Positions 1-14,133 are shown, numbered from the stretch's first letter. The stretch: 14,270 bases of DNA from Nitrospiraceae bacterium (GCA_050731155.1 JBOHOI010000053.1:1-14270); one strand, 5' to 3'. The notes: generated by a model not told the origin, from the sequence alone. A program made the numbers and translations.

Positions 1-742
1 CTATCAAATGGTCGGGCGCGGCATGCGGCTCGATGCGCCGACCGGAAAGCTCATGTTCCGCGTCTACGACTACACCGATGCCACGCGGCTCTTCGGTGAA
101 GAGTTCATCAGCAAGGCCACGCCGCCACGAAAGCGCAAGGAGGGACCAAGCCCAGAACCTCCGGAGCCGCTGGAACCCACCATTCAAGTTGAGGGGTTCG
201 ACGTCCGCGTTACCGACGCCGGGCGCTACATCGTGACGCAAGTGGACGGCAAAGCTATGCCCGTCACTGTAGAGGAATACAAGGCGCGTCTGGCAGCTAA
301 ACTCGTTGAGGAAGCCCCGACGCTGGAAAAATTCCGTGCTCGCTGGATCGCACCTGCTGAGCGTCGAGAACTCCTAGGAAACCTGCCGGACGCGGGTCGG
401 TCGCCGCTCCTGGTTCGTTCATTGGAAAACATGACCGATTACGACCTTTACGATGTGCTGGCCGAACTGGGCTACGGCCTGAATCCGCGCACCCGTCCTG
501 AGCGCGCCGACGCGTTCACGTACAAACATGCGGGTTGGTTGTCGAAATTACCACTACCTACCGCCACCACGCTCAAGGCCCTCGCCGCGCAATTTGCTCG
601 CGCCGGCACGGATGGATTGGAGAACCCACAGGTCTTTCAGACGCCCGAAGTCGTGCAGGCGGGTGGTCTGGCCGCGCTCAAAGCGCTCGGCAATCCTGCC
701 GACGTGCTGCGGGAGACTAAAGAAAGGATGTTCGCGGCGTGA
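1..742 (+). CDS. hsdR: Type I restriction enzyme R subunit (HsdR), C-terminal part; 5' end lies outside the window
   Basis: The frame is open from base 2 and reads ...YQMVGRGMRL, which is helicase motif VI (QxxGRxxR) of SF2/HsdR. It continues into a C-terminal region (…MTDYDLYDVLAELGYG…) reminiscent of the EcoEI/EcoAI-type HsdR C-terminal domain. It is followed in the same strand by hsdS and hsdM. The TGA stop at 740-742 overlaps the GTG start of the next ORF. Confidence 0.85.
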   Translation, partial: YQMVGRGMRLDAPTGKLMFRVYDYTDATRLFGEEFISKATPPRKRKEGPSPEPPEPLEPTIQVEGFDVRVTDAGRYIVTQVDGKAMPVTVEEYKARLAAKLVEEAPTLEKFRARWIAPAERRELLGNLPDAGRSPLLVRSLENMTDYDLYDVLAELGYGLNPRTRPERADAFTYKHAGWLSKLPLPTATTLKALAAQFARAGTDGLENPQVFQTPEVVQAGGLAALKALGNPADVLRETKERMFAA

Positions 743-1326
743 AGGAACAGGAGAGGTTTAAAGAACTCGATAATATAGTCCAAGAGCTTCGACATAATAT
801 TGAAGACCACCGATTTTATAAACTGTATTTCGCTCCTGATACTGATAAGTGGGACAAGTTCTGTGTTGCAATGGACACGCTGGAAGACACTGAGCTGGCT
901 TTGGCCCATTACTTCAACTATGGATTAGGCCGCAGTGATGAGGAGCGTTACCTCCGATTGTATGGAGTTCAGCAAGCCGTTTATCTACAACAAGACGCGA
1001 TTAGGGCTCTTGTTGAAGTCGTGCTTGAAAAGAAATTTGAGCCCTCTGCTGATTCTGCGTGGAGGGCAATCCGGGAAGTCCGCCGCCATATTGGTCACCC
1101 TATAGAAGTCAAGAAGGCCGGGTCGGTCCGAAGGACCTTCCTTACACGGGTCTACCTGGCTATGGGGCTTGTAGGGCTCATCACGAGGGACAGTAAAAAG
1201 GGGGAGAGCGAGCACTGGGGAGGGCAATTGGATGAGGTGTTGTTGGCTTATTTAGCTGAAGCCATTCCGATAGTTCGTGAGATCGGGGAAAGTGTCAAGA
1301 AAAGATGGCCTCTCCCTGAGGATTGA
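739..1326 (+). CDS. Hypothetical 195-aa protein embedded between hsdR and hsdS; candidate HEPN-like (R-x4-H) defence protein
   Basis: The ORF has a GTG start overlapping the hsdR stop (GTGA) and ends 1 nt before the hsdS ATG. It is markedly AT-richer than the flanking genes; a counted 60-nt sample at 761-820 was about 33% GC. It contains REVRRH/RRHIGH (R-x4-H) near residues 113-122. No recognisable enzymatic motif otherwise. Confidence 0.6.
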   Translation: MKEQERFKELDNIVQELRHNIEDHRFYKLYFAPDTDKWDKFCVAMDTLEDTELALAHYFNYGLGRSDEERYLRLYGVQQAVYLQQDAIRALVEVVLEKKFEPSADSAWRAIREVRRHIGHPIEVKKAGSVRRTFLTRVYLAMGLVGLITRDSKKGESEHWGGQLDEVLLAYLAEAIPIVREIGESVKKRWPLPED

Positions 1327-1327
1327 A

Positions 1328-2578
1328 ATGATTGCAAAAGCTTCAGGTGTAGAAACCCCACATTCGAAGCGTTCGTTGCCCGATGGCTGGCGGTGGGTGC
1401 GGCTGGGGGAGGTGTGCGAGGAACAGACTGGCACTCGTGATCCTCGTTCAGAGGCATTGAAACAGTTTCGCTATGTGGACATCACCAGTGTGGATAACCG
1501 CACGAAGCGGATGGTTGATCCCAAAACCTTAGTTGGCAGGGAGGCCCCAAGCCGGGCACGCCAAGTCATTAGGAAAAGCGACGTCCTCGTTTCGACAACA
1601 AGACCAAATCTGAACGCGGTCGCGCTGGTTCCATCTGGACTCGATGATGAAATTGCGAGCACTGGCTTCTGCGTCCTTCGGCCAAAAAGCGCCCTCAATC
1701 CCTCCTATTTATTCGGCTTTGTCCAAAGTGCGGAGTTTGTTCAATGTCTGTCGGACTTGGTCAAGGGTGCGTTGTATCCGGCGGTCACCGATAAGCAGGT
1801 TCGCGATCAATTCATACCCCTTCCACCGCTTGCCGAGCAGAAGCGCATTGCGGCGATCCTGAACGAGCAGATGGCGGTGGTGGACCGGGCGCGGGCCGCT
1901 GCCGAGGTGCAGTTGGAGGCGGCTAAGGCTCTCCCTGCCGCCTATCTTCGCGCCGTCTTCAACAGCCAAGAAGCCCGGCAGTGGCCGAGGAGAAGGCTAG
2001 GGGAGGTTTGCGAACTTTTGCCGTCCAAATCAATTGCAACAGACGGGGATGCAGAAGTCTTAGCCATCACGACAGCTTCTCTCACCGAAAGCGGGTTCGA
2101 GCCATCTGGTGTAAAACAGGCCAGAATGTGGGCCAATGATGTGACTGAGTGTGTGGTATCTCCTGGTGAAATCCTCATTGCTCGAAGTAACACACCAGAC
2201 CTCGTTGGGCGCGTCGCCATGTTTTCGGGAAATCCAAAGGAGGCGGTAGCTTCAGACCTAACAATTCGTCTTCGTGGGAATGGTGACAGAGTGAACTCGG
2301 CTTTTCTGACAGCCTATCTGTCGTTCCTCTACCTGACCGGTTATTGGAAGGAACGCGCGGGTGGAGCGAGTGGCTCCATGAAGAAAATCACGCGAACACA
2401 AATCCAAGAAGAGCGAGTTCCGGCTCCTCCTATCTCCGAGCAGGGGCGGATCGCGGCGGTCCTGAAGGAACAGATGGCGGTGGTGGAGCGGACACGTAAA
2501 GCGCTAGACGAACAACTCGACACGATCACCAAATTGCCCGCCACGCTCCTACGAATGGCATTCAACGGCGAGATCTGA
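1328..2578 (+). CDS. hsdS: Type I restriction-modification specificity subunit HsdS, with two target-recognition domains
   Basis: Two internal conserved HsdS repeats are present. The central one reads LPPLAEQKRIAAILNEQMAVVDRARAAAEVQLEAAKALPAAYLRAVFN and the distal one PAPPISEQGRIAAVLKEQMAVVERTRKALDEQLDTITKLPATLLRMAFNGEI; each follows a variable TRD. The ATG at 1328 is preceded by GAGGA. The track ORF begins at 1277, but that upstream part overlaps the preceding gene. Confidence 0.9.
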   Translation: MIAKASGVETPHSKRSLPDGWRWVRLGEVCEEQTGTRDPRSEALKQFRYVDITSVDNRTKRMVDPKTLVGREAPSRARQVIRKSDVLVSTTRPNLNAVALVPSGLDDEIASTGFCVLRPKSALNPSYLFGFVQSAEFVQCLSDLVKGALYPAVTDKQVRDQFIPLPPLAEQKRIAAILNEQMAVVDRARAAAEVQLEAAKALPAAYLRAVFNSQEARQWPRRRLGEVCELLPSKSIATDGDAEVLAITTASLTESGFEPSGVKQARMWANDVTECVVSPGEILIARSNTPDLVGRVAMFSGNPKEAVASDLTIRLRGNGDRVNSAFLTAYLSFLYLTGYWKERAGGASGSMKKITRTQIQEERVPAPPISEQGRIAAVLKEQMAVVERTRKALDEQLDTITKLPATLLRMAFNGEI

Positions 2579-2580
2579 AT

Positions 2581-3630
2581 ATGCCTCGTGGTCTCTCTGC
2601 CGAAGTCAGGACTCATCTTGAAAAGGCAATGGAATCAGCAATTCTCGCGGTCGAGGTTTATAACAAGCCAGCGACGAAGTTTCGTTCTGGTGGCTACATC
2701 GTGTTAATGACCATTGCGTGGACGGCTTTGTTTCATGCCATCTTTTTGAAACGTAGACAAAAACCTTACTACCGCAATGATCCGGATAACCCAAGGAGCC
2801 GCTACAAAAAGGTCGAAGGGGACTACAAAGCATGGGAGTTGGCAACTTGCTTAAAGAAATTCTATGGATCGAATAACCCACCTGAGCGCAAGAACTTGGA
2901 GTTCTTCGTTGGTCTTCGCAACAAAATCGAGCATCGTTCCATGCCTCAACTGGACCTCAAAATCTTTGGCGAATGTCAGGCCATGCTTTTCAATTTTGAG
3001 GATTGTCTCCTCAAGGAGTGTGGCCAGAAATACGGGCTGAATGAGAGCCTCACTATTGCCCTTCAGTTTTCCCGAATTCAGGATAGCGAGCAGGCGCGAG
3101 CAATTCGTGTGCTGCATCGTCCCCTCCATAAACACATCGAGTCGTACATTCAAACCTTCCGATCATCCTTGAGCAATGACATCGAGAGCGATCTTGCGTA
3201 TAGTTACAAGGTCTTCTTGATTCCTAAGCTGGCAGGTAATCAGGGGCAGGCAGATGTAGCGGTTGAGTTCGTTAAATTCGATCCGAGCACGCCCGACCAA
3301 ATGGAAACCTACGAGAAGATAGTCTCGCTAATAAAGCCAGCAGTGATCCAAGTCGCTAATCCAGGAAAACTTAAGGCCGGGGATGTTGCCAAAGCCGTCG
3401 CTGACGCGACCGGAAGGAAATTTACTGCAAGTAGTCATCACTCCCGTGCGTGGCGGTTCTACCGCATACGACCGCCCAATGGCGATCCCAGGCCTGAAGT
3501 AACTCAGACACAGTATTGTCAATGGGATGAAGCGCATCGGGACTATGTTTACACAGACGCTTGGAAGAAGTTCCTCATGTCTGAAATGAAAGACCCTACA
3601 AAGTACGAACACATAATGCATTCGACATAG
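2581..3630 (+). CDS. HEPN-like protein (DUF3644-like N-terminal domain with LRNKIEH motif) plus an uncharacterised ~200-aa C-terminal domain, embedded between hsdS and hsdM
   Basis: The ATG lies 2 nt after the hsdS stop. The N-terminus (AMESAILAVEVYNKPATKFRSGGYIVLMTIAWTALFHAIFLK …NLEFFVGLRNKIEHRS) matches my memory of the DUF3644 pattern (A.E.YNKP … L.ELRDN.IH). The RNKIEH stretch is a canonical HEPN R-x4-H RNase motif. AT-richer than the hsd genes; a counted 60-nt sample at 2701-2760 was about 42% GC. Confidence 0.7.
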   Translation: MPRGLSAEVRTHLEKAMESAILAVEVYNKPATKFRSGGYIVLMTIAWTALFHAIFLKRRQKPYYRNDPDNPRSRYKKVEGDYKAWELATCLKKFYGSNNPPERKNLEFFVGLRNKIEHRSMPQLDLKIFGECQAMLFNFEDCLLKECGQKYGLNESLTIALQFSRIQDSEQARAIRVLHRPLHKHIESYIQTFRSSLSNDIESDLAYSYKVFLIPKLAGNQGQADVAVEFVKFDPSTPDQMETYEKIVSLIKPAVIQVANPGKLKAGDVAKAVADATGRKFTASSHHSRAWRFYRIRPPNGDPRPEVTQTQYCQWDEAHRDYVYTDAWKKFLMSEMKDPTKYEHIMHST

Positions 3631-3674
3631 AGCCTAAGAATCAAAGAGACGCGCATGGCGAATTTGGAGAATGA

Positions 3675-5216
3675 ATGATGCCACGACCCCGCAAGGATGA
3701 AAACGCCAACGGTAGGCGCCTTGCGACCCAGCGATCCGTCAACGGCGCGATCAAGAGCATCTGCGACATCATGCGCAGGTCTAATTGCGCCGGCGCGCTG
3801 CAATATGTCCCTGAACTGACCTGGATTCTCTTCTTGCGTATCCTCGATGAGCGGGAGACTCGTGAGGCGGAGGAAGCCGAAGCAGTGGGCGCAGACTACG
3901 CACCGTCGCTGACCAAGCCGTATCGCTGGCAGGACTGGGCTGCGCCCAACGGGCCGAAGCGGAAGGAATTACAAGATGGGTCAATGGGGGCGTTCTTTGG
4001 CTTCGTCAACAGCGACTTGATCCCTCGCTTAAAGAAACTCCGTGAACAGCCCAACGCCACTTCGCGCCAAAAGGTCATCAGCGAAATCTTCTCCGGCATT
4101 GAGAAGACCCGCATCGATACCGAGCGCAATTTCCTGGATGTGTTGGATAAGGTCCACGAGATCAGCGCCGAGACCGTAGACCCCACGCATGTCTTCACTC
4201 TTTCGCAGGTGTACGAGGGGCTACTTCTCAAGATGGGCGAGAAGGGCAACGACGGGGGCCAGTTCTTTACCCCCCGCGAGATCATCCGGGCGATGGTAAA
4301 GGTGATCGACCCTAAGATCGGAGAGACGGTCTACGATCCGGGGTGTGGGACGGGGGGCTTCCTAGCACAGTCTTATGAATACATGCGCGACCGTTTGGGT
4401 GACAAGGCGACTGCTCCAGAGATTGAAACCCTTAAGCAACGAACCTTCTACGGACGCGAGAAGGATAATGCCGTCTACCCCATCGGCTTGGCCAACTTGG
4501 TCCTACACGATATTGATGAGCCACACATCTGGCACGGCAACACCTTGACCGGTGCGGAGACATACGGCGGTCTCTTCACCGGTGCCCCTGCCCTCTACGA
4601 CGTGGTGTTGATGAATCCGCCCTTCGGGGGCAAGGAAGGAAAGGATGCCCAGACACGGTTTGCCTACAAGACCGGCGCAACCCAGGTCTTGTTCCTTCAG
4701 CACGTCATCGACAGCCTCAAGCCCGGCGGGCGCTGCGGGATTGTGCAGGATGAAGGGGTGCTCTTCCGCACGAACGAGACGGCTTTCGTGCAAACCAAGC
4801 GCAAGTTGCTAGATGATTGCGACCTCCGGTGCATCGTCAGTCTTCCGGGTGGCGTCTTCACGGCGGCAGGGGCGGGTGTGAAGACGAACCTGCTCTTTTT
4901 CACGAAAGGGCGGCCCACGGAGAAGATTTGGTACTACGACCTGTCTGACATCAAGGTCGGTAAGAAGACTCCATTCACGCTAGATAAATTCGAGGAGTTC
5001 TTCCGTCTGCTCCCGACCCGTGCCGACAGCGAGCGAAGCTGGACCGTCACGCGGAAAGCGATCGAGGAGAAGAACTACGACCTCAAAGCAGTCAATCCGA
5101 ACGCCAAGAGCACTGAAGATACCCGCACCCCCGAAGAACTCTTGGATCTGATCGAAGCCAAAGGCCGCGAAGTCGCCGAAGCGCTCGCCACGCTCCGCGC
5201 CACCAGCAAGAAATAA
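3675..5216 (+). CDS. hsdM: Type I restriction-modification N6-adenine DNA methyltransferase subunit HsdM
   Basis: HsdM N-terminal domain signature (ALQYVPELTWILFLRILD). FFTPREI motif. SAM-binding motif I DPGCGTGGFL. Catalytic motif IV NPPFGG. GGAGA RBS at 3666-3670. The start could be the ATG at 3675 or 3678. Confidence 0.92.
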   Translation: MMPRPRKDENANGRRLATQRSVNGAIKSICDIMRRSNCAGALQYVPELTWILFLRILDERETREAEEAEAVGADYAPSLTKPYRWQDWAAPNGPKRKELQDGSMGAFFGFVNSDLIPRLKKLREQPNATSRQKVISEIFSGIEKTRIDTERNFLDVLDKVHEISAETVDPTHVFTLSQVYEGLLLKMGEKGNDGGQFFTPREIIRAMVKVIDPKIGETVYDPGCGTGGFLAQSYEYMRDRLGDKATAPEIETLKQRTFYGREKDNAVYPIGLANLVLHDIDEPHIWHGNTLTGAETYGGLFTGAPALYDVVLMNPPFGGKEGKDAQTRFAYKTGATQVLFLQHVIDSLKPGGRCGIVQDEGVLFRTNETAFVQTKRKLLDDCDLRCIVSLPGGVFTAAGAGVKTNLLFFTKGRPTEKIWYYDLSDIKVGKKTPFTLDKFEEFFRLLPTRADSERSWTVTRKAIEEKNYDLKAVNPNAKSTEDTRTPEELLDLIEAKGREVAEALATLRATSKK

Positions 5217-5272
5217 CCCCCTCTTTTTCTCCCCTCTTTCAGCGGGTTAGCAACATGGTTGCGCGTTTGTAT

Positions 5273-5311
5273 GCCGTATGGCAGCCCCCTCTGAGGGGGC
5301 TGCCATACGGC
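5273..5311 (+). terminator. 17-bp perfect GC-rich hairpin (gccgtatggcagccccc / tctga / gggggctgccatacggc) followed by a T-rich tract; probable intrinsic terminator of the hsd operon, or an operator palindrome
   Basis: Perfect inverted repeat read directly, with a 5-nt loop, 57 nt after the hsdM stop, followed by tcgttcacttatttctcttgttc. It overlaps the 5' extension of track ORF 5278, so the real start of the next gene is downstream. Confidence 0.45.
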
Positions 5312-5334
5312 TCGTTCACTTATTTCTCTTGTTC

Positions 5335-6456
5335 ATGATTCGTGAACATGGTACATTGGCGAACGCTATGAGAGGAATTGGACAGGAACCCCAGATAGTC
5401 GACTCCGCGCTGGAGCGATTGAAGAGCATTCATCCAGTCAAGGTAGTAAACCTACGCCGAGAGGTACATGTGGGAGATCGGCGTTGGGATGGCGAGGTGA
5501 CACTGAAGACTGATCGCGGCACGTTCCGTTACCTCTTTGAGGTCAAGACCAACTTGCGGCCACAGACCATACGACATCTGCTGATTCAGGCAGACGCGTA
5601 TCGCAAACAATGGGGTAAGGCTACAGGGCTTTTGCTGCTGGCCGATTACGTCAATCCCTCTTTAGGAGATCAGCTCAAAGACGCCGGCATCAATTTCATC
5701 GACACGGCAGGGAACTTGTTCTTGAAGCGGGAGCCGGGGCTGTATCTCTACGTCGAAGGGAAGAAGTCACCCGCCTCCACGAAGGAAAAGCCGACGCGGC
5801 TCTTTCAGCCAAGCGGCCTGACGTTGCTTTTCGGCTTGCTTGTTGAGCCTGAGTCCATCAACCACCCTTACAGGCATCTGTCGGAGGCAAACGGCATTGC
5901 CCTAGGAACAGTTGGTTGGGTCAAACGAGATTTACGAGAACATGGCTACCTGGAGCCCACCGGGAAGGATAGTTTTCGCCTAGTTCGTAAGAAGGACCTC
6001 TTAGATCGCTGGGTGCATGGGTACGCGAGCCGCCTCCGCCCTAAAGTTTTCCTCGGCGAGTATCGTGCCCTGTCGAATGATCTTGATACTGTCGTCAAAT
6101 CGTTCAAACAGTATGCCCTAGAACACGGCATGTCGTGGGGGGTATCAGGAGGGCTCGGTGCTGATGAGCTTGTACACCATTACCGAGGAAACACCGTCAC
6201 ACTCTTCGTCGAATCTTGGAGACACAATGAAGCTCTGAAAGAGCTGAAATGGTTGCCCGTCACAGGAGGCCCCATAACAGCCCTTAAAGGCTTTTCTCCT
6301 CGTGTCTTTCAGATGAGGGGGAAACAGGCCCGCTATCCGGTCGTGCACCCTCTCCTCATTTATGCGGAATTGCTCTATCAGGGGAGCGACCGTGCACTCG
6401 AAACGGCCCGCTTAATCTACAACGAGTTCCTGGAACCCTCCCTTGCCAAAGATTGA
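5335..6456 (+). CDS. Three-module protein: N-terminal PD-(D/E)xK-like domain, central winged helix-turn-helix (AbiEi/COG5340-like), C-terminal domain; probable regulator/antitoxin partner of the downstream nucleotidyltransferase
   Basis: The N-terminal ~150 aa carries …RRWDGEVTLKTDRGTFRYLFEVKTNL…, a D … ExK nuclease-fold pattern. The central region (LSEANGIALGTVGWVKRDLREHGYLEPTGKDSFRLVRKKDLLDRWV) looks like a wHTH. The stop overlaps the next ORF by 14 nt. The start is taken at ATG 5335, after the hairpin; ATG 5368 is an alternative. Confidence 0.55.
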   Translation: MIREHGTLANAMRGIGQEPQIVDSALERLKSIHPVKVVNLRREVHVGDRRWDGEVTLKTDRGTFRYLFEVKTNLRPQTIRHLLIQADAYRKQWGKATGLLLLADYVNPSLGDQLKDAGINFIDTAGNLFLKREPGLYLYVEGKKSPASTKEKPTRLFQPSGLTLLFGLLVEPESINHPYRHLSEANGIALGTVGWVKRDLREHGYLEPTGKDSFRLVRKKDLLDRWVHGYASRLRPKVFLGEYRALSNDLDTVVKSFKQYALEHGMSWGVSGGLGADELVHHYRGNTVTLFVESWRHNEALKELKWLPVTGGPITALKGFSPRVFQMRGKQARYPVVHPLLIYAELLYQGSDRALETARLIYNEFLEPSLAKD

Positions 6457-7240
6457 AGGCGATCTGGCAGAGGCACTGAAACTGCTCCGCAACTATTTCG
6501 AGCGGAGAGAAATATCTTTTGCACTTGTAGGCGCCCTTGTGCCAGCCCTTTTGCTTTCATCCGAAGTCGGAGCCCGAGAGACACGCGATGCGGACCATGT
6601 GATCAAGCTGGCTTCATGGGCAGAGTGGGATGCTGTGATCGCCGAACTCGTCGAATTAGGATTCAGGCGAGGGCGAGGGGAGCAAGAGCACCGATTGTAT
6701 TACAAAACTGGTGAGATTGACTTGATTCCTTATGGAGTCACAAACGGACCTGATGAAGTTCTGATTTGGCGTAAATCCGGGAACCAAATGAACATGACCG
6801 GATTCTCTGACGTATTCCGATATGCCAAACCGACGGAGGTTACGCATGGACTGACTCTTCCTGTTGTGCCGCTCTGGCTCTTTGCCGTCCTTAAGATAAT
6901 CGCCTATCTCGATCGTGAATCCCCGCGAGACCTTTCCGACCTCATCTATGTGCTGGAGCGTTATGAAACATCGGGAGAAGAGTCTCGCCGCTTTGAGGTC
7001 GCAAGTGGCGTTGATGGTGTGACGTATGAAACCTCGGGGGCGTATCTCCTGGGATGCGATGTTCGAGAAAATGCCTCAGATAAGGCCTTGGAATTGATCA
7101 AAGGATTTGTCGCTCCCATCACGGACGAGCATCACAAAGCGATCAATACAATTCTCCGAGAGGAAAACCTCCTGCAGTCTGAGGATCGAAGGCAGTCTGT
7201 GTATCGTTTAATCCAAGCCTTTCGAAAAGGATTAGCCTGA
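6443..7240 (+). CDS. Nucleotidyltransferase-fold protein (AbiEii / minimal NTase-like), probable toxin/effector of a type IV TA-like or Abi pair
   Basis: The N-terminal stretch FALVGALVPALLLSSEVGARETRDADHV fits the pol-beta NTase pattern hG[GS]-x9-13-DxD. Size, position immediately after a wHTH gene, and the overlapping start (TTG at 6443) are typical of AbiEi/AbiEii-like operons. Confidence 0.55.
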   Translation: MPKIEGDLAEALKLLRNYFERREISFALVGALVPALLLSSEVGARETRDADHVIKLASWAEWDAVIAELVELGFRRGRGEQEHRLYYKTGEIDLIPYGVTNGPDEVLIWRKSGNQMNMTGFSDVFRYAKPTEVTHGLTLPVVPLWLFAVLKIIAYLDRESPRDLSDLIYVLERYETSGEESRRFEVASGVDGVTYETSGAYLLGCDVRENASDKALELIKGFVAPITDEHHKAINTILREENLLQSEDRRQSVYRLIQAFRKGLA

Positions 7241-7320
7241 ATGCGAACAAGAAGGGACATGCTACTTTTTCCAGAAGCTTCCACACACATAAGCCGCTGG
7301 CTGGATGCCCTCTTCGAATC

Positions 7321-7345: not shown

Positions 7346-7514
7346 TCACCCTTGACTCCTCCCCGCGGCTGGCCTCGCCGGTTTTTTCCTCCGGTCCTTC
7401 ACGCGCGGTGTTCACGCCCCTGCGCAGGGCCGGGCAGCTCGCGGCCCAAAAGCCGCCTTCACGCCCCCAACATCTCTGGACACGCTGCTCAGCCAGGAGT
7501 CGGCCAGAAGCATC

Positions 7515-7543
7515 TTGACAAGAACCGAGGAAAGAGCTACTAA
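7515..7543 (+). promoter_or_regulatory. Candidate sigma70-type promoter upstream of the SWIB gene (TTGACA, 17-nt spacer, TACTAA)
   Basis: Perfect -35 hexamer TTGACA at 7515-7520. The -10 hexamer TACTAA matches the TATAAT consensus only 3 of 6, after a 17-nt spacer. Lies about 150 nt upstream of ATG 7691. Confidence 0.25.
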
Positions 7544-7690
7544 CAGGCACTTGTTGGGGCTCCTTGAGGGCGTGAGGGCCGCCCACGCCACAAGGCACGT
7601 CCTAGCACCTCACCGTAGTTATCGTTCACACACAGCAGCGAGACGCCGCAAAACAATGTAGCCTCACGCTGCGAACCTTGAGGAGGGAAA

Positions 7691-7948
7691 ATGGCAAGAA
7701 AAATGAACAACACATTCATGAAACCTGTAAACCCGTCTCGTGATTTGGCAGAAGTGGTGGGAAGCAAAGCTCTTCCGCGAACAGAGGTGACCAAAAAGCT
7801 TTGGGCGTACATCAAAAGGCATAAGCTCCAGGATTCCAAAAACAGACGCAACATCAACGCTGACGACACATTGAGGAAAGTATTTGGCGGCAAGAGAACG
7901 GTCAATATGTTTGAGATGACCAAGCTCGTCAGCAAGCACCTGAAATAA
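7691..7948 (+). CDS. SWIB/MDM2-domain protein (85 aa)
   Basis: Sequence …LAEVVGSKALPRTEVTKKLWAYIKRHKLQDSKNRRNINADDTLRKVFGGKRTVNMFEMTKLVSKHL is a textbook bacterial SWIB-domain sequence. AGGAGGG RBS directly upstream. Confidence 0.85.
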   Translation: MARKMNNTFMKPVNPSRDLAEVVGSKALPRTEVTKKLWAYIKRHKLQDSKNRRNINADDTLRKVFGGKRTVNMFEMTKLVSKHLK

Positions 7949-7989
7949 CCAGAACATTCCCCCTCGTTCGGCGCCTCAGTCAGAACGTT

Positions 7990-8008
7990 CGGGGCCCACG
8001 GGCCCCGT
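7990..8008. terminator. Short perfect GC hairpin (cggggccc acg gggccccg) 42 nt downstream of the SWIB gene; possible terminator
   Basis: 8-bp stem with a 3-nt loop, read directly. There is no clear U-tract on either strand. Confidence 0.3.
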
Positions 8009-8125
8009 GCTGTCTTGCCGAGGCGCCGTGTCATGTCCAGGCGGGACCACCAGGCCGCTGAACGATACCGTGGTGCCACGCGATCATCGGCCGATTCCAT
8101 CCCGAGCCACGATGATGGGACTCGC

Positions 8126-8141
8126 CCTCCTCCCCCGCGCC
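8126..8141 (+). repeat. Copy 2 of R1 (CCTCCTCCCCCGCGCC)
   Basis: Identical 16-mer core in the convergent intergenic space between the SWIB gene and the - strand gene. Confidence 0.6.
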
Positions 8142-8224
8142 CTCAAAAGTGAGTTACGAACAAGCCTGGCAGGGGAACCCCGCCGCTTGATGCTCTCTGG
8201 ACGCGAGGCTTGCGAAGCATCCTC

Positions 8225-8659
8225 TCAGTCGCCTCCTTTGAACGCATCCCGGTCGTATTCCTCGCCGACGTCATCATGTTCCTGGATTCCCAGAGCGCTG
8301 AGGAACGACACTCGCAAGGCTCGGACTTGCGTGAGGCTCCGGCGGTCAGCTTTTTCCGCTCCGGCCAGAAACCGGTCGCAGAGTTTCAGGCCTTGCTGAA
8401 AGTGTTCGGCGATCGGGTCTTCGGCGGCTTGCTGCCAGGTACTATAAATGAGGAATTCCTGGAAGGCGCGGGCGGTAGGGTAGTGCTCGCCGAGCGTCAG
8501 GAGCTGGCGGTACGCCTGCGCGGCTTCGTCCCCGGCGCTCGCAGAGAAGGCGGCCTCCCATTCGGCAGCCGATGCACCATCAGCGCCCAGCTCGTTGCGC
8601 GTCTGCGAGAGCTGGAATGCGGTGTGGGCGGCGACGGCTGGGTCGAACGAGAGATCCAT
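8225..8659 (-). CDS. Hypothetical protein (~144 aa from ATG 8659; a GTG at 8746 would give 173 aa)
   Basis: In the - strand frame, third-codon positions are strongly G/C-biased (GCC, GTC, CAC, ACC …), which in a high-GC genome is the signature of a real gene. AAGGGAG lies upstream of ATG 8659. The overlapping + strand ORF 8210..8824 lacks this bias. Confidence 0.55.
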   Translation of the reverse strand: MDLSFDPAVAAHTAFQLSQTRNELGADGASAAEWEAAFSASAGDEAAQAYRQLLTLGEHYPTARAFQEFLIYSTWQQAAEDPIAEHFQQGLKLCDRFLAGAEKADRRSLTQVRALRVSFLSALGIQEHDDVGEEYDRDAFKGGD

Positions 8660-8972
8660 TATCCCGTCTTTTACTCCCTTCCGCACACTTTCCGCAATTC
8701 CGTCTTCGCGCGTTGGAGTAGGCGCTTGTCTTTGGCACTGAGCCACCTGCGCTTAACAGACAAGTCTGGGTTCCCGCTCTTGACACCTCCCTTTGGACAG
8801 CCTAGCTTTGCTTCTGCTGACTGATTCCTCAGACCATCCATTGGTTCCTCTTCAAGATCTGGAGCGGATGGCCCTGTTGTCGGAGCGGAAGGAGCCGCGG
8901 GAGGTTCAGCGGGAGGGACTGGAGAGGAAAGGGCTGCTGCCAAAGGACAAACGCTTTCGTCATGAGTGAGCT

Positions 8973-9362
8973 GTGCCTCCACTCGATCTGACGTGCCCAT
9001 CTTGTGGGACCGAACGGACCCAACGCCTGAATCTCCTGCGGCGGTTTTATGGTGACGGTGGTTTTGTTGGGCACGCGTTTCTCTCCGAAGGGCTTGAACG
9101 CCCTCACCAGCCGTGGGGATTTACGGCTGGCTTTCTTGTCGGGCTTCTCCTCGGTGCCATCTCGTATGTGATCCTTCCCGAGGCGTACCAGCTCTTCTCA
9201 GTACTGCCCCTGGTCCTGGGTTGGCTGGGCGTTGGGGTCAGGGCTCGGATGAAATACCATGACAAGCGGGCGAAGTGGGAGAGCGCCCTCGACCAGTACT
9301 TCATGTGCCTGCGATGTGGGGACGTCTTTCGCCCCCGCAAACAAAGGCCCGACGTTCCATGA
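8973..9362 (+). CDS. Small zinc-ribbon membrane protein (CPSCG … CLRCG flanking two hydrophobic helices)
   Basis: GTG start. Two CxxC pairs at the N- and C-termini bracket hydrophobic segments (FTAGFLVGLLLGAISYVIL, LFSVLPLVLGWLGVGV). Confidence 0.45.
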   Translation: MPPLDLTCPSCGTERTQRLNLLRRFYGDGGFVGHAFLSEGLERPHQPWGFTAGFLVGLLLGAISYVILPEAYQLFSVLPLVLGWLGVGVRARMKYHDKRAKWESALDQYFMCLRCGDVFRPRKQRPDVP

Positions 9363-9387
9363 CTCAGAAGCTCTCCTCATCGCGTAA

Positions 9388-9540
9388 GAAGAAAAGGCGG
9401 GGTCAGGTCTGGCCATCACGCACCGGCTTGCCCGCGACAAAGCCAGCCTCGACATCTTCTGGTTCAAGGACGAGTCCCTCAAAGAGTCCGACAATCTCCA
9501 CGGCGCGCTGGAACAGTTTGAGGCGATCCAAGCAGATTGA
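9388..9540 (+). pseudogene. hsdM: Remnant of the C-terminal ~50 codons of a second, different-family type I hsdM gene
   Basis: A 51-codon open frame reads …ITHRLARDKASLDIFWFKDESLKESDNLHGALEQFEAIQAD*. The (A/R)xKxxLDIFWLKDESL…DNL…ALEQF pattern is, from memory, the conserved extreme C-terminus of EcoKI-type HsdM proteins. The intact hsdM at 3675-5216 ends quite differently. No upstream hsdM body is present. Confidence 0.45.
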
Positions 9541-9581
9541 GCCGACACGTACATGCTGAACGCTGATGGAGATCCTCTTCG

Positions 9582-10028
9582 ATGAATCTTCGCGCCGCCC
9601 TGATCTTCCTCGTCCTCGGATTCATCGGCCTGTTGATCGTGATGGGGACGGCCAGTTTCGTTCGGTGGCTGAAGATTTCCTACCCTCGGTCCTTCCGCTC
9701 GATTCTAGTTGTGCTCTGCCTCTTGATGGTGGGTGCCGGGGTCTGGGTCTACATGGAAGCGAAGGAGCGACCAGTGTTCCACGCGGGCGATCTCGTCACG
9801 CTCGAGGAGCCGGTGGTTGCCAGAGTCATCCCTGCAGGTCGCAGCGCGCCCGCGACAAGCTGTATTGTGGAGATTTACGAGCATCTCTCGGTGGTGGACG
9901 TTCAAACCGGAACCATGACGGCGCGCGTCGAGAGCAACAATCGATCCGGTCCGAGCTACTGTCCAATCGGCGCTGACGTGCACATCGAGCTGGCCTGGCT
10001 TCACCGCTATACTCTCACGCACCGGTAG
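9582..10028 (+). CDS. Hypothetical membrane protein (two predicted TM helices at the N-terminus)
   Basis: ATG with a GGAGA RBS 9 nt upstream. Strong GC3 bias (CTT CGC GCC GCC CTG ATC TTC CTC GTC CTC …). Hydrophobic stretches LIFLVLGFIGLLIVMG and ILVVLCLLMVGAGVWVY. Confidence 0.6.
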   Translation: MNLRAALIFLVLGFIGLLIVMGTASFVRWLKISYPRSFRSILVVLCLLMVGAGVWVYMEAKERPVFHAGDLVTLEEPVVARVIPAGRSAPATSCIVEIYEHLSVVDVQTGTMTARVESNNRSGPSYCPIGADVHIELAWLHRYTLTHR

Positions 10029-10031
10029 TCC

Positions 10032-10058
10032 TGACCCCGATCCATCGCGACAACCCGA
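10032..10058 (+). repeat. Repeat R3, copy A (TGACCCCGATCCATCGCGACAACCCGA)
   Basis: A 27-nt segment that recurs at 12105-12132 with 2 mismatches. Same orientation. Confidence 0.55.
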
Positions 10059-10121
10059 CGACGCCCTTCCGGCCGCTGGACCACTCGCTTGACCGCCGTC
10101 GGTAAACGAGCCCTTTCGCTC

Positions 10122-10145
10122 CCTCGTCCCCCGCGCCTCCCGCAG
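10122..10145 (+). repeat. Copy 3 of R1 (CCTCGTCCCCCGCGCCTCCCGCAG)
   Basis: One mismatch in the core. Lies 89 nt downstream of repeat R3 and about 200 nt upstream of the SPFH gene. Confidence 0.55.
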
Positions 10146-10350
10146 AGCATTCTGACTGGACGGAAAAGCGTTGCCGTGCCAGGAGGCGGCGGTCGCCGGT
10201 CACCAGATCATTCGCGTCCGCGCCGTCTTCACCGCTCACACTCCGCTAGACATCGCGTGCTGTCTCGTGTAACGTTCTCCCGGCATTTCTCTCATCGCTT
10301 GTCTGCTCCATTGCCTTCACCCCCAGGTCGCCCGGGATAAGGAGGTCACC

Positions 10351-11214
10351 GTGTCCATCGAATTGGCGGTCGCAGTCGTGGCAGTTGTGGTCCTGTTAGT
10401 CGCCACCATCAAGATCGTCCCGGAATATCAGCGCATCGTCGTCCTCCGTCTGGGCAAAGTCCTCCCACGGCCGAAGGGGCCGGGCCTTGTTCTCATCATT
10501 CCGGTCATCGATCGGCCCATTTGGGTGGACCTCCGTGAGACGTATCTCGAGGTCCCGCACCAGACCTGCATCACGAAGGACAATGCGCCGATCTCCATCG
10601 ACTTTCTCATCTATTCGAAAGTCCTCGACCCAACCTCCAGCGTGGTCCAGGTCCAAGACTTCGCCGGGGCTTCTCAGGGGATTGCCACCACGACTCTCCG
10701 GGCGGTTGTGGGTGACATCCCGCTCGATGATGTGTTGGCCAAGCGCGATCAGATCAACCACCTCTTACAAGCAAGAATGGACGAGGTGACCCAACGCTGG
10801 GGGGTGAAGATCACGACGGTTGAGATTCGGGAAATTACGCCGCCGAAAGAGGTCCAGGAAGCGATGACGCGTCAGATGTCCGCCGAGCGGAGCCGGCGGG
10901 CCACGGTCACCGAGGCAGAAGGGGCTAAGCAGGCGGCCGTGACGGTGGCCGAGGGTGATAAACAGGCGGCGATCCTGAAAGCTGAAGGGGACCGCCAGGC
11001 GGCGAGCTTGCGGGCGGAAGGGTTTGCTCTTGCCCTGAGAAAGATCTTTGAGGCGGCCAAGGAGGTGGACTCGAAAACCATGAGCCTGCAATACCTTGAG
11101 ACCTTGAAGGTCATGGGTACCAGCCCCTCCACCAAATTCATCTTCCCGATGGAGTTCAGCTCTTTCCTGGCCGGCTTGTTGGGAGACAGTAAGAAGGCAT
11201 TCGGTAAAGAGTGA
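10351..11214 (+). CDS. SPFH/band-7 (stomatin/prohibitin-like, HflK/C family) membrane protein
   Basis: N-terminal TM helix followed by the band-7 core (IVPEYQRIVVLRLGKV…DLRETYLEVPHQTCITKDNAPISIDFLIYSKVLDP…) and a C-terminal coiled coil with A/E/Q-rich heptads. GTG start preceded by AAGGAGGT. Confidence 0.9.
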   Translation: MSIELAVAVVAVVVLLVATIKIVPEYQRIVVLRLGKVLPRPKGPGLVLIIPVIDRPIWVDLRETYLEVPHQTCITKDNAPISIDFLIYSKVLDPTSSVVQVQDFAGASQGIATTTLRAVVGDIPLDDVLAKRDQINHLLQARMDEVTQRWGVKITTVEIREITPPKEVQEAMTRQMSAERSRRATVTEAEGAKQAAVTVAEGDKQAAILKAEGDRQAASLRAEGFALALRKIFEAAKEVDSKTMSLQYLETLKVMGTSPSTKFIFPMEFSSFLAGLLGDSKKAFGKE

Positions 11215-12056: not shown

Positions 12057-12683
12057 TCACGACGTGCGCGCGGTGGGCTGTCCATGCCAGGGCAGCAGGG
12101 AATAAGTTGACCCCGATCCATCGTTACAACCCGATTCGGGTCTGCCCACTGCCTGGATAGGGGACTCAACTGCCTGGCGGGCTTGGTTGAGGGACTTGAC
12201 CATGTCCACGAGTCGCGCTCGCCCTTCCTCGGAGATTTCGGTGAACCGTACACCCATTCCGGGAGAGAACCTGTATTGGTCGGCTTTCGGGCAAACCCAC
12301 GCGACGGTCCCCTTCGCTCCCAGCCATTCAGAGGGATAGTCAGGGAGCGCAACCTCCATCATCAGTTTGGTCCCGACCGGAAGCGGGTCGTTGCTTTCAA
12401 TAAAAAGCCCTTCATCCCCACCCCCTGAAGGCCGGCTCTCGAACCAGTGACCGTCAGGCGTACGGTAGCGGACATTCAGAACGAGGAAGTCCATCAACTC
12501 AGTGCGCAGACCCTCTGGTTGATTCTGGGCGCGTAAGCCCAGGATCAGGTCAATCACAGATCCCCAGGGCACGGTGCCCATTTGCGCGCCCCCCACGCCG
12601 AGCAGCCGAATGGTTTCACGCTCGTGGTCCAGCTCCAGCAATTTTCCCTTATGTGCCTTGGTGGCAGTGACTGGCAGCTTCAT
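12057..12683 (-). CDS. PilZ-like domain protein (TIGR02266-type C-terminal domain, possibly degenerate), 208 aa
   Basis: The C-terminal half (…LVLNVRYRTPDGHWF…GGGDEGLFIESNDPLPVGTKLMMEVALPD…GTVAWVCP…GMGVRFTEISEEGRARLVDMV) parallels the PilZ-like TIGR02266 pattern (RVPV…GGGLFV…PLPVGT.V.L.L.LP…G.VVWV…PGMGIQF.DL.EEAR.RL). ATG at 12683 with a GGAGGA RBS. The last ~15 codons read into repeat R2. Confidence 0.55.
   Translation of the reverse strand: MKLPVTATKAHKGKLLELDHERETIRLLGVGGAQMGTVPWGSVIDLILGLRAQNQPEGLRTELMDFLVLNVRYRTPDGHWFESRPSGGGDEGLFIESNDPLPVGTKLMMEVALPDYPSEWLGAKGTVAWVCPKADQYRFSPGMGVRFTEISEEGRARLVDMVKSLNQARQAVESPIQAVGRPESGCNDGSGSTYSLLPWHGQPTARTS
12062..12104 (+). repeat. Repeat R2, copy A (GTGCGCGCGGTGGGCTGTCCATGCCAGGGCAGCAGGGAATAAG)
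   Basis: A 43-nt segment that recurs at 13319-13361 with 2 mismatches, read directly. Both copies create the spurious peptide …LLPWHGQPTART in - strand ORFs. Confidence 0.65.
12105..12132 (+). repeat. Repeat R3, copy B
   Basis: Immediately follows R2 copy A, suggesting R2, R3 and R1 are parts of one composite element. Confidence 0.55.
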
Positions 12684-12895
12684 CAGGTCCTCCGTTACTG
12701 AGTGGAACTGATTCCCAACTCCCTGACCAGGTCCTGGAGACGTTCTTGCTCGGGGGGCGCAGGGAGAGAAAGCCCACACCGAACTCTCGGCCCGTTGTCC
12801 ACGACTGAACTCGCGGTGCAGAGGATGGGCTCACACCAGAGACAAACAACATCACTTGCTAGCAGTCGCAACGTCATGAACACCACCAGCGCATC

Positions 12896-13447: not shown

Positions 13448-13665
13448 GACTAGATATTCCCGCCGCCGAACTCGGTGCGCTGCTTCCTCTCTCCTGACAG
13501 AGGGGGCGTCCCATGCTGCCTCCACGGGTTGCTCGTTGCCCGTGCCCGTTTCTCTCACTCTGGGTGCGCCTGAGTATAGAAAAGAAGACCCTGGAGAGAG
13601 AAAAGGGGAGAGGAATAGCTCAAGCCAAGGATGTGTTACGATGGGCTTTGAGGGAGGGTGACTCT

Positions 13666-14133
13666 GTGAAGTCCATTCTGTGTATCTGCACGGGGAACGT
13701 CTTTCGGAGCCTGGCCGCGGAGTACGCCTTGAAGGCCTGGCTCGGGCCGGACTCGGGTTACGTCGTCGGTTCGGCCGGCATCGAAGCGCTTCCCCAGCCG
13801 GTGCATCCGCTCGTCAGGGACTGCTTGCTGGAGAAAGGGGTCGACCCTTCGCCTCATGTGCCACGGAAACTCACACAGGAACTCCTTCATGGAGCCGATA
13901 TTCCCGTCGCGATGGGCTTGGACCATAAGGAGTTTATCCGCCGGCATTTTCACCGGGAGGTGCTTCTGTTCAACCAGATTTGCTATCAAAAGGAAGAACC
14001 CATTCTTGACGTTCACGAAGCGATGCCGAACTGGCCCGTCAGCCCAGAGGCGGCACGCAGCTATGTCGTCTCCGTCATTGACTATATCTGGAACGCCATG
14101 CCTGCCTTTCTCGCCAGGATTCCCCACTTATAG
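13666..14133 (+). CDS. Low-molecular-weight phosphotyrosine phosphatase / ArsC-like family protein (CX5R P-loop)
   Basis: From GTG 13666 (GGGAGGG RBS 7 nt upstream) the protein starts VKSILCICTGNVFRSLAAEY…, the LMW-PTP P-loop (V-C-x-G-N-x-C-R-S) with the second Cys replaced by Phe. The track ORF from 13513 adds an implausible N-terminal extension. Confidence 0.7.
   Translation: MKSILCICTGNVFRSLAAEYALKAWLGPDSGYVVGSAGIEALPQPVHPLVRDCLLEKGVDPSPHVPRKLTQELLHGADIPVAMGLDHKEFIRRHFHREVLLFNQICYQKEEPILDVHEAMPNWPVSPEAARSYVVSVIDYIWNAMPAFLARIPHL

Follow-up and report, generated by a model that had tools for sequence, protein, structure and literature searches.

A type I restriction-modification operon carrying embedded genes at two of its subunit borders in a Nitrospiraceae contig

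The window analysed here is the whole 14,270-bp contig JBOHOI010000053.1 of a metagenome-assembled Nitrospiraceae genome (GCA_050731155.1). It opens with five open reading frames (ORFs) on the same strand, namely the C-terminal part of hsdR, a first embedded gene (ORF-X), hsdS, a second embedded gene (ORF-Y), and hsdM (Table 1). Together they represent a type I restriction-modification (R-M) operon with one additional gene at the border between hsdR and hsdS (R/S) and another at the border between hsdS and hsdM (S/M). This layout had been proposed from an inspection of the DNA alone (hereafter, the sequence-only reading), and each of the junctions given there was reproduced in both the ORF map and the raw sequence.

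Table 1. Coordinates of the features of the window.
Feature	Coordinates	Strand	Remarks
hsdR C-terminus, type I restriction subunit	2..742	+	last 246 codons; EcoEI_R_C, REase_I
ORF-X, 195 aa, embedded cargo, unclassified family	739..1326	+	HEPN-like R115-x4-H120 motif
hsdS, specificity subunit, 416 aa, two target-recognition halves	1328..2578	+	Methylase_S, Specificity_I
ORF-Y, 349 aa, DUF3644 / PDC-S19	2581..3630	+	HEPN domain ~7-200 + C-terminal domain ~260-349
hsdM, N6-adenine methyltransferase subunit, 513 aa	3675..5216	+	N6_Mtase, HsdM_N, MTase_I
AbiEi_2-like gene	5278-6456	+	Pfam AbiEi_2 1.8e-17
AbiEii-like nucleotidyltransferase gene	6443-7240	+	Pfam AbiEii 0.0024, under curated cutoff
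SPFH/Band 7 protein	10351-11214		
PilZ-domain protein	12057-12779	-	
Low-molecular-weight phosphatase	13513-14133		

The GTG start codon of ORF-X (at 739) and the TGA stop codon of hsdR (740-742) overlap as GTGA, and a single nucleotide (nt) separates the stop of ORF-X from the ATG of hsdS at 1328. The gap between the end of hsdS (2578) and ORF-Y (2581) is 2 nt, and that between the end of ORF-Y (3630) and hsdM (3675) is 44 nt. Candidate ribosome-binding sites precede ORF-X (AAGGA), hsdS (GAGGA), and hsdM (GGAGAA). On the + strand, the terminator scan found no terminator-like hairpin from hsdR to the end of hsdM, the first sites being located at 5250 and 7367; since the promoter/terminator scan returned site counts no higher than in shuffled sequence, the missing internal terminator represents only an absence of contrary evidence. 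Because genes overlap by 4 nt or lie 1-2 nt apart and no such hairpin was detected between them, ORF-X and ORF-Y would be transcribed with the hsd genes. The guanine-plus-cytosine (GC) content of the two cargo genes is 0.48-0.49 versus 0.56-0.61 for the hsd genes (0.49 for ORF-X versus 0.61 for hsdR), that is, about 10 points under hsdR and hsdM. Rfam and tRNA scans of the window did not retrieve any match.

The assignment of hsdR, hsdS, and hsdM to a type I system was upheld by profile searches against Pfam, PADLOC, and NCBIfam. The HsdR C-terminus matched EcoEI_R_C in Pfam (1.4e-6), REase_I in PADLOC (1e-13), and, partially, the EcoAI/FtnUII family of NCBIfam. Only 246 C-terminal codons of hsdR are present because the remainder lies off the contig; as regards the nuclease and superfamily 2 helicase/translocase domains of HsdR, the window thus holds only the C-terminal 246 residues. 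In three related loci described below (L099-L101), HsdR is complete, with 798-800 residues and ResIII/SWI2_SNF2 domains. HsdS has the two target-recognition domains of a type I specificity subunit, with Methylase_S matched in two stretches (5.6e-23) and Specificity_I over residues 16-415 (PADLOC, 9e-67). HsdM matched N6_Mtase (2.9e-59), HsdM_N (4.4e-10), and the PADLOC model MTase_I (3.9e-189), and its translation contains the AdoMet and NPPF motifs expected of a type I HsdM (DPGCGTGGF and NPPFGG). More than 100 HsdM relatives were listed, sharing 72-91% identity with the HsdM of the window (most of them more than 80%); their hosts belong to Nitrospirota, Acidobacteriota, Chloroflexota, Verrucomicrobiota, and other groups.

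To what extent the organization of the operon is peculiar to this contig can be seen from five independent loci carrying related R-M genes. Four of them were found via HsdM (L099-L109; 84-91% identity) and one via HsdR (L055; 82%). In L099, the order is hsdR-hsdS-SoFic-hsdM (SoFic, PADLOC 9e-119). In L100, a DUF4268 gene (PDC-S11, 3e-123) occupies the S/M slot, and AbiEi_2 and AbiEii-like genes follow hsdM. L101 has HicA and a HicB-like gene at R/S and DUF4258 plus DUF2283 at S/M, and L102-L109 carry DUF4268 (PDC-S11) at S/M, with an adjoining integrase gene. The S/M slot is therefore filled in each related locus sampled with hsdM, and the R/S junction in some of them only. These data reveal that hsdR-hsdS-[cargo]-hsdM is the norm of this R-M lineage and that both junctions behave as cargo slots. 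The same order in L099, L100, L101, and L102-L109 also overturns the view of the sequence-only reading that an hsdS preceding hsdM is atypical.

The borders of the cargo are sharp. In blastn comparisons of the window with L099, L100, and L101, the homology ends exactly at the hsdR stop (742), returns in the conserved middle of hsdS, ends again at the hsdS stop (2578, in the comparison with L099), and restarts about 25-40 nt inside hsdM (3700-3717). In L099 and L100, hsdR and hsdS overlap directly by 4 nt, with no ORF-X at the junction, so that ORF-X appears as a clean extra gene at R/S. The pair of genes that follows hsdM in the window is shared with L100 (9593-11543), with 82% DNA identity to positions 5313-7263 of the window; hence, an AbiE-type module seems to travel with this R-M lineage. 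The match of the first gene to AbiEi_2 (1.8e-17) is above the cutoff, that of the second to AbiEii (0.0024) reaches 18.3 bits versus a cutoff of 22.5 bits, and the two genes overlap by 14 nt; in PADLOC, the pair gave weak matches to AbiEii and PDC-M21B. As a separate observation, the hsdR gene of L102-L109 (L102, 4363-6048) codes for only 561 residues versus about 800 elsewhere and is devoid of the EcoEI_R_C region, and an integrase gene lies upstream of it; the short hsdR and the integrase suggest that the locus is a mobile island whose restriction subunit is truncated or degenerate.

The gene in the S/M slot of the window is the better characterized of the two. As the sequence-only reading had supposed, ORF-Y belongs to DUF3644, a family of HEPN proteins; this was borne out by the match to Pfam DUF3644 (5.1e-55, residues 12-196) and by that to the PADLOC model PDC-S19 (PDLC04950; 1.1e-133), which aligns residues 1-347 with model positions 1-342 of 353 and therefore covers the protein over its full length. 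Within PADLOC, ORF-Y matched PDC-S19 models only. Its homologues fall into more than 2,262 clusters, mostly of 350-370 residues, and align with it end to end. The motif R113-N-K-I-E117-H118, in which R113, N114, E117, and H118 do not vary among 52 homologues, has the R-x4-6-H form of HEPN proteins, and the predicted fold contains the four-helix HEPN bundle and matches HEPN structures. ORF-Y is thus an HEPN protein and most likely a latent RNase. Residues ~260-349 are predicted to form a separate small domain of helices and one hairpin with its own invariant residues (H287, C313, D316, H319, D321, and W328), and this conserved C-terminal domain may be involved in sensing or regulation. Sequence-profile searches of the ORF-X and ORF-Y families against the PDB sequences gave no match.

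According to Anantharaman et al. 2013 (PMC3710099), DUF3644 (the "EC042_2821" family) is listed among the HEPN families occurring in R-M system operons. The PDC models derive from Payne et al. 2024 (10.1101/2024.01.29.577857), who added to PADLOC 145 phage defence candidates (PDCs) drawn from genes located inside BREX, DISARM, or type I R-M systems. A literature search for "PDC-S19" found this name in no paper.

ORF-X did not match any Pfam, NCBIfam, or PADLOC entry. A word-indexed search retrieved only nine close relatives; the exhaustive profile search disclosed a large family, with clusters formed at 50% identity, of which 1,741 representatives passed E<=1e-3 and 1,001 passed E<=1e-10. Its members fall into two size classes, of ~190 and ~310-340 residues, the long form having a C-terminal extension; one member is fused to a transglutaminase domain. 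The extension of the ~320-residue relatives was compared with the C-terminal domain of ORF-Y, and the two are unrelated. The family, undescribed and absent from Pfam, NCBIfam, and PADLOC 2.0, is the sole novel gene element at the locus.

The conservation pattern of the family is marked. Although its members are only 21-53% identical to ORF-X, residues D50, G76, R115, and H120 are invariant, and R18, D46, Y71, Q79, Q84, Q85, R112, P121, and R137 are nearly so. The motif reads R-x5-H in 147 of 155 members and R-x4-H in four, the latter being the form found in the window (R115-x4-H120), and the R is followed by N in 134; as far as a sequence motif can tell, it fits the HEPN consensus. In an AlphaFold2 model (pLDDT 79, built from nine sequences), ORF-X consists of long helices; the motif lies where helix 107-117 ends, with H120 in the loop, and is followed by a four-strand sheet (122-163) and a final helix (164-189). 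The location of the motif agrees with that described for HEPN proteins, where it lies at a helix end or at the start of the next loop (PMC3710099). The alignment of the ORF-X family with the DUF3644 family by hhalign was not significant (E 0.14-0.19), with "IRxxRNxxGHP" set against "GLRNKIEHRS"; using either the full length or the N-terminal domain of DUF3644, only the motif and one helix pair were aligned. Foldseek did not retrieve any match with the ORF-X model. HEPN_AbiU2 was the sole Pfam family matched by more than one member of the ORF-X family (3 of 59, best E 0.0099, below threshold, plus P0130). Taken together, motif and topology make membership of ORF-X in the HEPN superfamily reasonably likely in our judgement, and the protein is probably a divergent HEPN-type RNase. 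The sequence-only reading had described both embedded proteins as small, HEPN-like, provided with an R-x4-H motif, and devoid of an ATPase domain; size, motif, and lack of the ATPase were upheld for both, and the HEPN-like label holds for ORF-Y through its family and fold and, in the case of ORF-X, is founded on motif and topology alone.

We then considered where the two cargo families occur in other genomes, using 46 genome and 42 metagenome loci for ORF-X and six homologue contexts for ORF-Y. An all-against-all BLAST of 328 neighbouring ORFs did not reveal any conserved neighbour of the ORF-X family, whose surroundings are a mixture of housekeeping genes and mobile or defence genes (AAA_15/GajA/OLD-like, ParE, integrases, HNH, and ResIII). 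Type I R-M genes lie near ORF-X relatives in three of about 94 other loci (L055, L097, and L039), or in four of about 95 if the window is included. In L055, an HsdR C-terminus 82% identical to that of the window is followed by an ORF-X homologue (52% identical, with a 4-nt overlap), hsdS, and an unrelated gene of 273 codons; this contig ends before any hsdM. In L097 (2213-8295), the order is hsdM-hsdS-X-hsdR, where X is a long-form relative of 320 residues and hsdR is of the EcoR124 type, and all the borders touch or overlap. In L039, the type I locus is about 2.7 kb from the ORF-X relative and on the opposite strand. Hence, a member of the ORF-X family adjoins hsdR in the window and in both L055 and L097, and two type I systems unrelated to each other have independently acquired a gene of this family.

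Some further contexts of ORF-X relatives deserve mention. In L003 (229-1814) and L004 (879-2464), a 49%-identical homologue overlaps by 4 nt a preceding gene coding for 335 residues, which in L003 has a weak match to SIR2_2 (E 0.0097); the pair may represent a two-gene SIR2-plus-HEPN-like module. The genes upstream of the ORF-X homologues in L003 and L001 were considered as possible ORF-Y relatives and rejected, being unrelated to ORF-Y and to each other. The closest relative of ORF-X (87%; L054, 1510-1941) is, as called, short of its first ~50 residues, and a DDE_3 (IS630-type) transposase gene is found 80 nt away, so that this relative may have been truncated by an insertion sequence (IS). 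One more relative resides on a plasmid, in a region that also contains a SIR2 gene and IS elements.

As for ORF-Y, its homologue in L005 lies beside an Mrr-type nuclease and a methyltransferase, and those in L006 and L007 adjoin large MmeI/Eco57I-type methyltransferase and PLD-SNF2 helicase genes; plasmid homologues occur alone or after a methyltransferase. In L007 (7148-12463; Leptothermofonsia sichuanensis), four MNT/HepT-like pairs, that is, HEPN toxin pairs, flank the ORF-Y homologue, and this dense stack lies entirely downstream of the PLD-SNF2 helicase and MmeI/Eco57I-type methyltransferase genes, forming one island. Type I R-M genes were found around none of the six ORF-Y homologues (0/6), no ORF-Y relative was found in any ORF-X locus outside the window, and no ORF-X relative in any ORF-Y locus. 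Both cargo families, therefore, occur mostly outside type I R-M systems.

On the whole, these data are best accounted for by a type I R-M lineage that has spread widely by horizontal transfer and harbors swappable, autonomous cargo at its gene borders, a reading to which we assign a probability of roughly 0.68. The gene borders would act as points of exchange for self-contained defence or toxin genes, with recombination between the conserved hsd sequences on either side as the probable mechanism. In the window, the S/M slot carries the gene of a DUF3644 HEPN protein and the R/S junction that of a 195-residue protein of an unclassified family with an HEPN-type motif (R-N/R-x3-4-H). Each of them would most likely provide a second layer of defence autonomously, as a latent RNase cleaving RNA upon infection or plasmid entry and thereby stopping either the invader or the cell. 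Embedding would provide shared transfer and expression and would not reflect an obligate physical guard exerted by HsdMSR. A more far-reaching picture joins two proposals. According to it, ORF-X would exemplify a large HEPN-like clade (~1,700 clusters; solo forms of ~190 and extended forms of ~320 residues; a sheet inserted after the motif) of stand-alone antiviral or anti-plasmid RNases, and the R-M lineage would be a two-slot (R/S and S/M) platform for cassette exchange, with recombination at the hsd borders; we hold this combination only tentatively, and somewhat doubt that both parts are right at once.

Several points weigh against the interpretation of the cargo as autonomous and swappable. 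Few related R-M loci were sampled (the five independent loci and the window), and PDC-S19 is itself only a candidate defence family. Furthermore, no antitoxin or regulator is evident for either ORF-X or ORF-Y, which leaves the latency of a free RNase unexplained, and the tight translational coupling would also be compatible with a stoichiometric partnership with the Hsd proteins. The last two points lead to a guard of the PrrC kind, as favoured by the sequence-only reading: HsdMSR would hold ORF-X and/or ORF-Y inactive, and a phage anti-restriction protein would free the RNases. The coupling of the cargo with the hsd genes, the lack of any other visible regulator, the position of ORF-X family genes next to hsdR in the window, L055, and L097, and the precedent of PrrC/EcoprrI all speak for it, and the model was explicitly proposed for R-M-linked HEPN genes (PMC3710099). 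Nevertheless, related Hsd sets hold unrelated cargo in the same slots, which would scarcely be expected of a protein interface shaped by co-evolution; in L055, the ORF-X homologue is only 52% identical to that of the window, compared with 82% for the HsdR C-terminus. PrrC is nearly always found in type I R-M systems, unlike the relatives of ORF-X (3 of ~94 other loci) and ORF-Y (0 of 6 contexts), and this prevalent occurrence outside type I R-M argues against an Hsd guard and for autonomous passengers in recombination hot spots. Moreover, neither cargo protein has the ABC ATPase sensor domain, and the related or analogous systems HEC-08, Ishtar, and TgvAB function without a host R-M system. 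The turnover of the cargo, its distribution, and the ability of these three systems to act alone thus weaken the guarded-RNase model, which we regard as unlikely.

Another possibility concerns ORF-X only, which might not be an HEPN nuclease but a hitch-hiking regulator, an adaptor, or a selfish mobile gene, its motif being convergent or non-catalytic. The lack of a significant profile or structural match to HEPN families, the mixture of housekeeping and mobile or defence neighbours elsewhere, and the absence of the family from PADLOC are what one would expect in this case. Such a protein would scarcely be expected to keep R115, H120, and D50 invariant, and R112, P121, D46, and Q84-Q85 nearly so, at 21-53% identity, to bear its motif at a helix end or loop start as HEPN proteins do, and to have HEPN_AbiU2 as the only Pfam family matched by more than one member; the embedding in two unrelated type I systems and the presence elsewhere of SIR2-like, OLD/GajA-like, ParE, and integrase genes point in the same direction. 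We therefore consider this explanation rather improbable, though worth keeping in mind. Finally, ORF-X and ORF-Y could be the two halves of a single system, either toxin and antitoxin or a pair of RNases acting together, separated by hsdS; they share one operon, HEPN-type motifs, and a lower GC content than the hsd genes. This pairing was rejected, being largely refuted by the distribution of the two families: they were never found together elsewhere, L055 has an ORF-X homologue but a different gene after hsdS, and L099 and L100 carry S/M cargo without ORF-X. Only a very slight chance can be granted to it.

Downstream of the AbiE-like pair, a terminator-like hairpin with a T run (7367-7383, + strand) lies 127 nt past the AbiEii-like gene and represents a possible end of the defence operon. 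An ORF of 85 codons for a SWIB/MDM2 domain (7691-7948, + strand; Pfam 6e-31) follows in an A-rich stretch (AT skew 0.30 at 7501-8000), where it is easily overlooked among the spurious ORFs of a GC-rich contig. The region from 8000 to 10300 contains several long ORFs without a Pfam match, and the right half of the contig (10351-14133; Table 1) looks like ordinary chromosome.

The locus provides a clean natural case of defence genes as swappable passengers of a restriction operon: on the same chassis, a single slot holds SoFic, PDC-S11, PDC-S19, toxin-antitoxin-like pairs, or unknown genes. For this reason, the R-M lineage could serve as a bait for new defence genes, and ORF-X represents, on sequence grounds, a concrete candidate defence gene from a large unannotated family. 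The locus does not establish a new category, since both R-M-embedded HEPN genes and "guilt by embedding" have already been published. Modestly new are the ORF-X family itself, large, unannotated, and twice embedded, and the R-S-M chassis with a slot that is always filled, within a small sample.

The comparison with known systems leads to the same appraisal. The sequence-only reading had seen here a candidate new defence architecture; however, the occurrence of HEPN genes, including DUF3644, in R-M operons and the analogy with PrrC were already described (PMC3710099), and ORF-Y is the catalogued PDC-S19, whose model it matches end to end, PDCs being defined by their location within BREX, DISARM, or type I R-M systems. 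The E. coli prototype of the EC042_2821 family differs in its fusions to winged helix-turn-helix, restriction endonuclease-fold, and Zn-ribbon domains (PMC3710099), in place of which ORF-Y has a C-terminal domain of about 90 residues made of helices and a hairpin. HEC-08, a DUF3644 protein with zinc ribbons embedded in Hma systems, defends as a single cloned gene and requires the histidine of its motif (10.1101/2024.01.29.577857); compared by description only, it shares the DUF3644 HEPN domain with ORF-Y and, like ORF-Y, is encoded by one gene housed within a larger defence system. Ishtar (2026 preprint) is a single-gene HEPN system, of the DUF4145 or DUF3644 type, with a C-terminal domain; it clears plasmid RP4 and often lies near defence genes. 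Again by description only, ORF-Y resembles it in joining an N-terminal DUF3644-type HEPN domain to a C-terminal one, which in Ishtar comprises 5-7 beta strands and three helices and in the ORF-Y model mostly helices with one hairpin.

PrrC/EcoprrI and RloC resemble the window in placing an HEPN RNase gene inside a type I R-M operon, as a layered defence (PMC3710099). In these proteins, an N-terminal ABC ATPase regulates the nuclease, and PrrC is kept inactive by EcoprrI (PMC3710099; 10.1101/2024.01.29.577857); neither ORF-X, with its 195 residues, nor ORF-Y contains an HEPN-fused ABC ATPase. PrrC is also almost exclusively found in type I R-M systems (10.1101/2024.01.29.577857), a restriction that neither cargo family shares. 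HEPN_AbiU2 comprises small Abi-type HEPN proteins that stand alone and have been reported from R-M operons (PMC3710099); all its matches to the ORF-X family are under the Pfam threshold, and ORF-X differs in the four-strand sheet inserted after the motif. The closest parallels for the organization of the locus are the self-contained systems at hsd gene borders. DarTG2, a toxin-antitoxin system, lies between hsdS and hsdR, a junction regarded in the literature as a likely hot spot of recombination for defence genes, and TgvAB, located in a Vibrio type I R-M operon, confers protection by itself in the absence of the R-M genes; in the relatives of the window described above, the S/M slot is taken by SoFic (L099) or PDC-S11 (L100 and L102-L109). 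These embedded systems rely on other effector chemistries (ADP-ribosylation, type IV restriction, and AMPylation), and, since hsdS precedes hsdM in the chassis of the window, the constant slot is S/M and not S/R.

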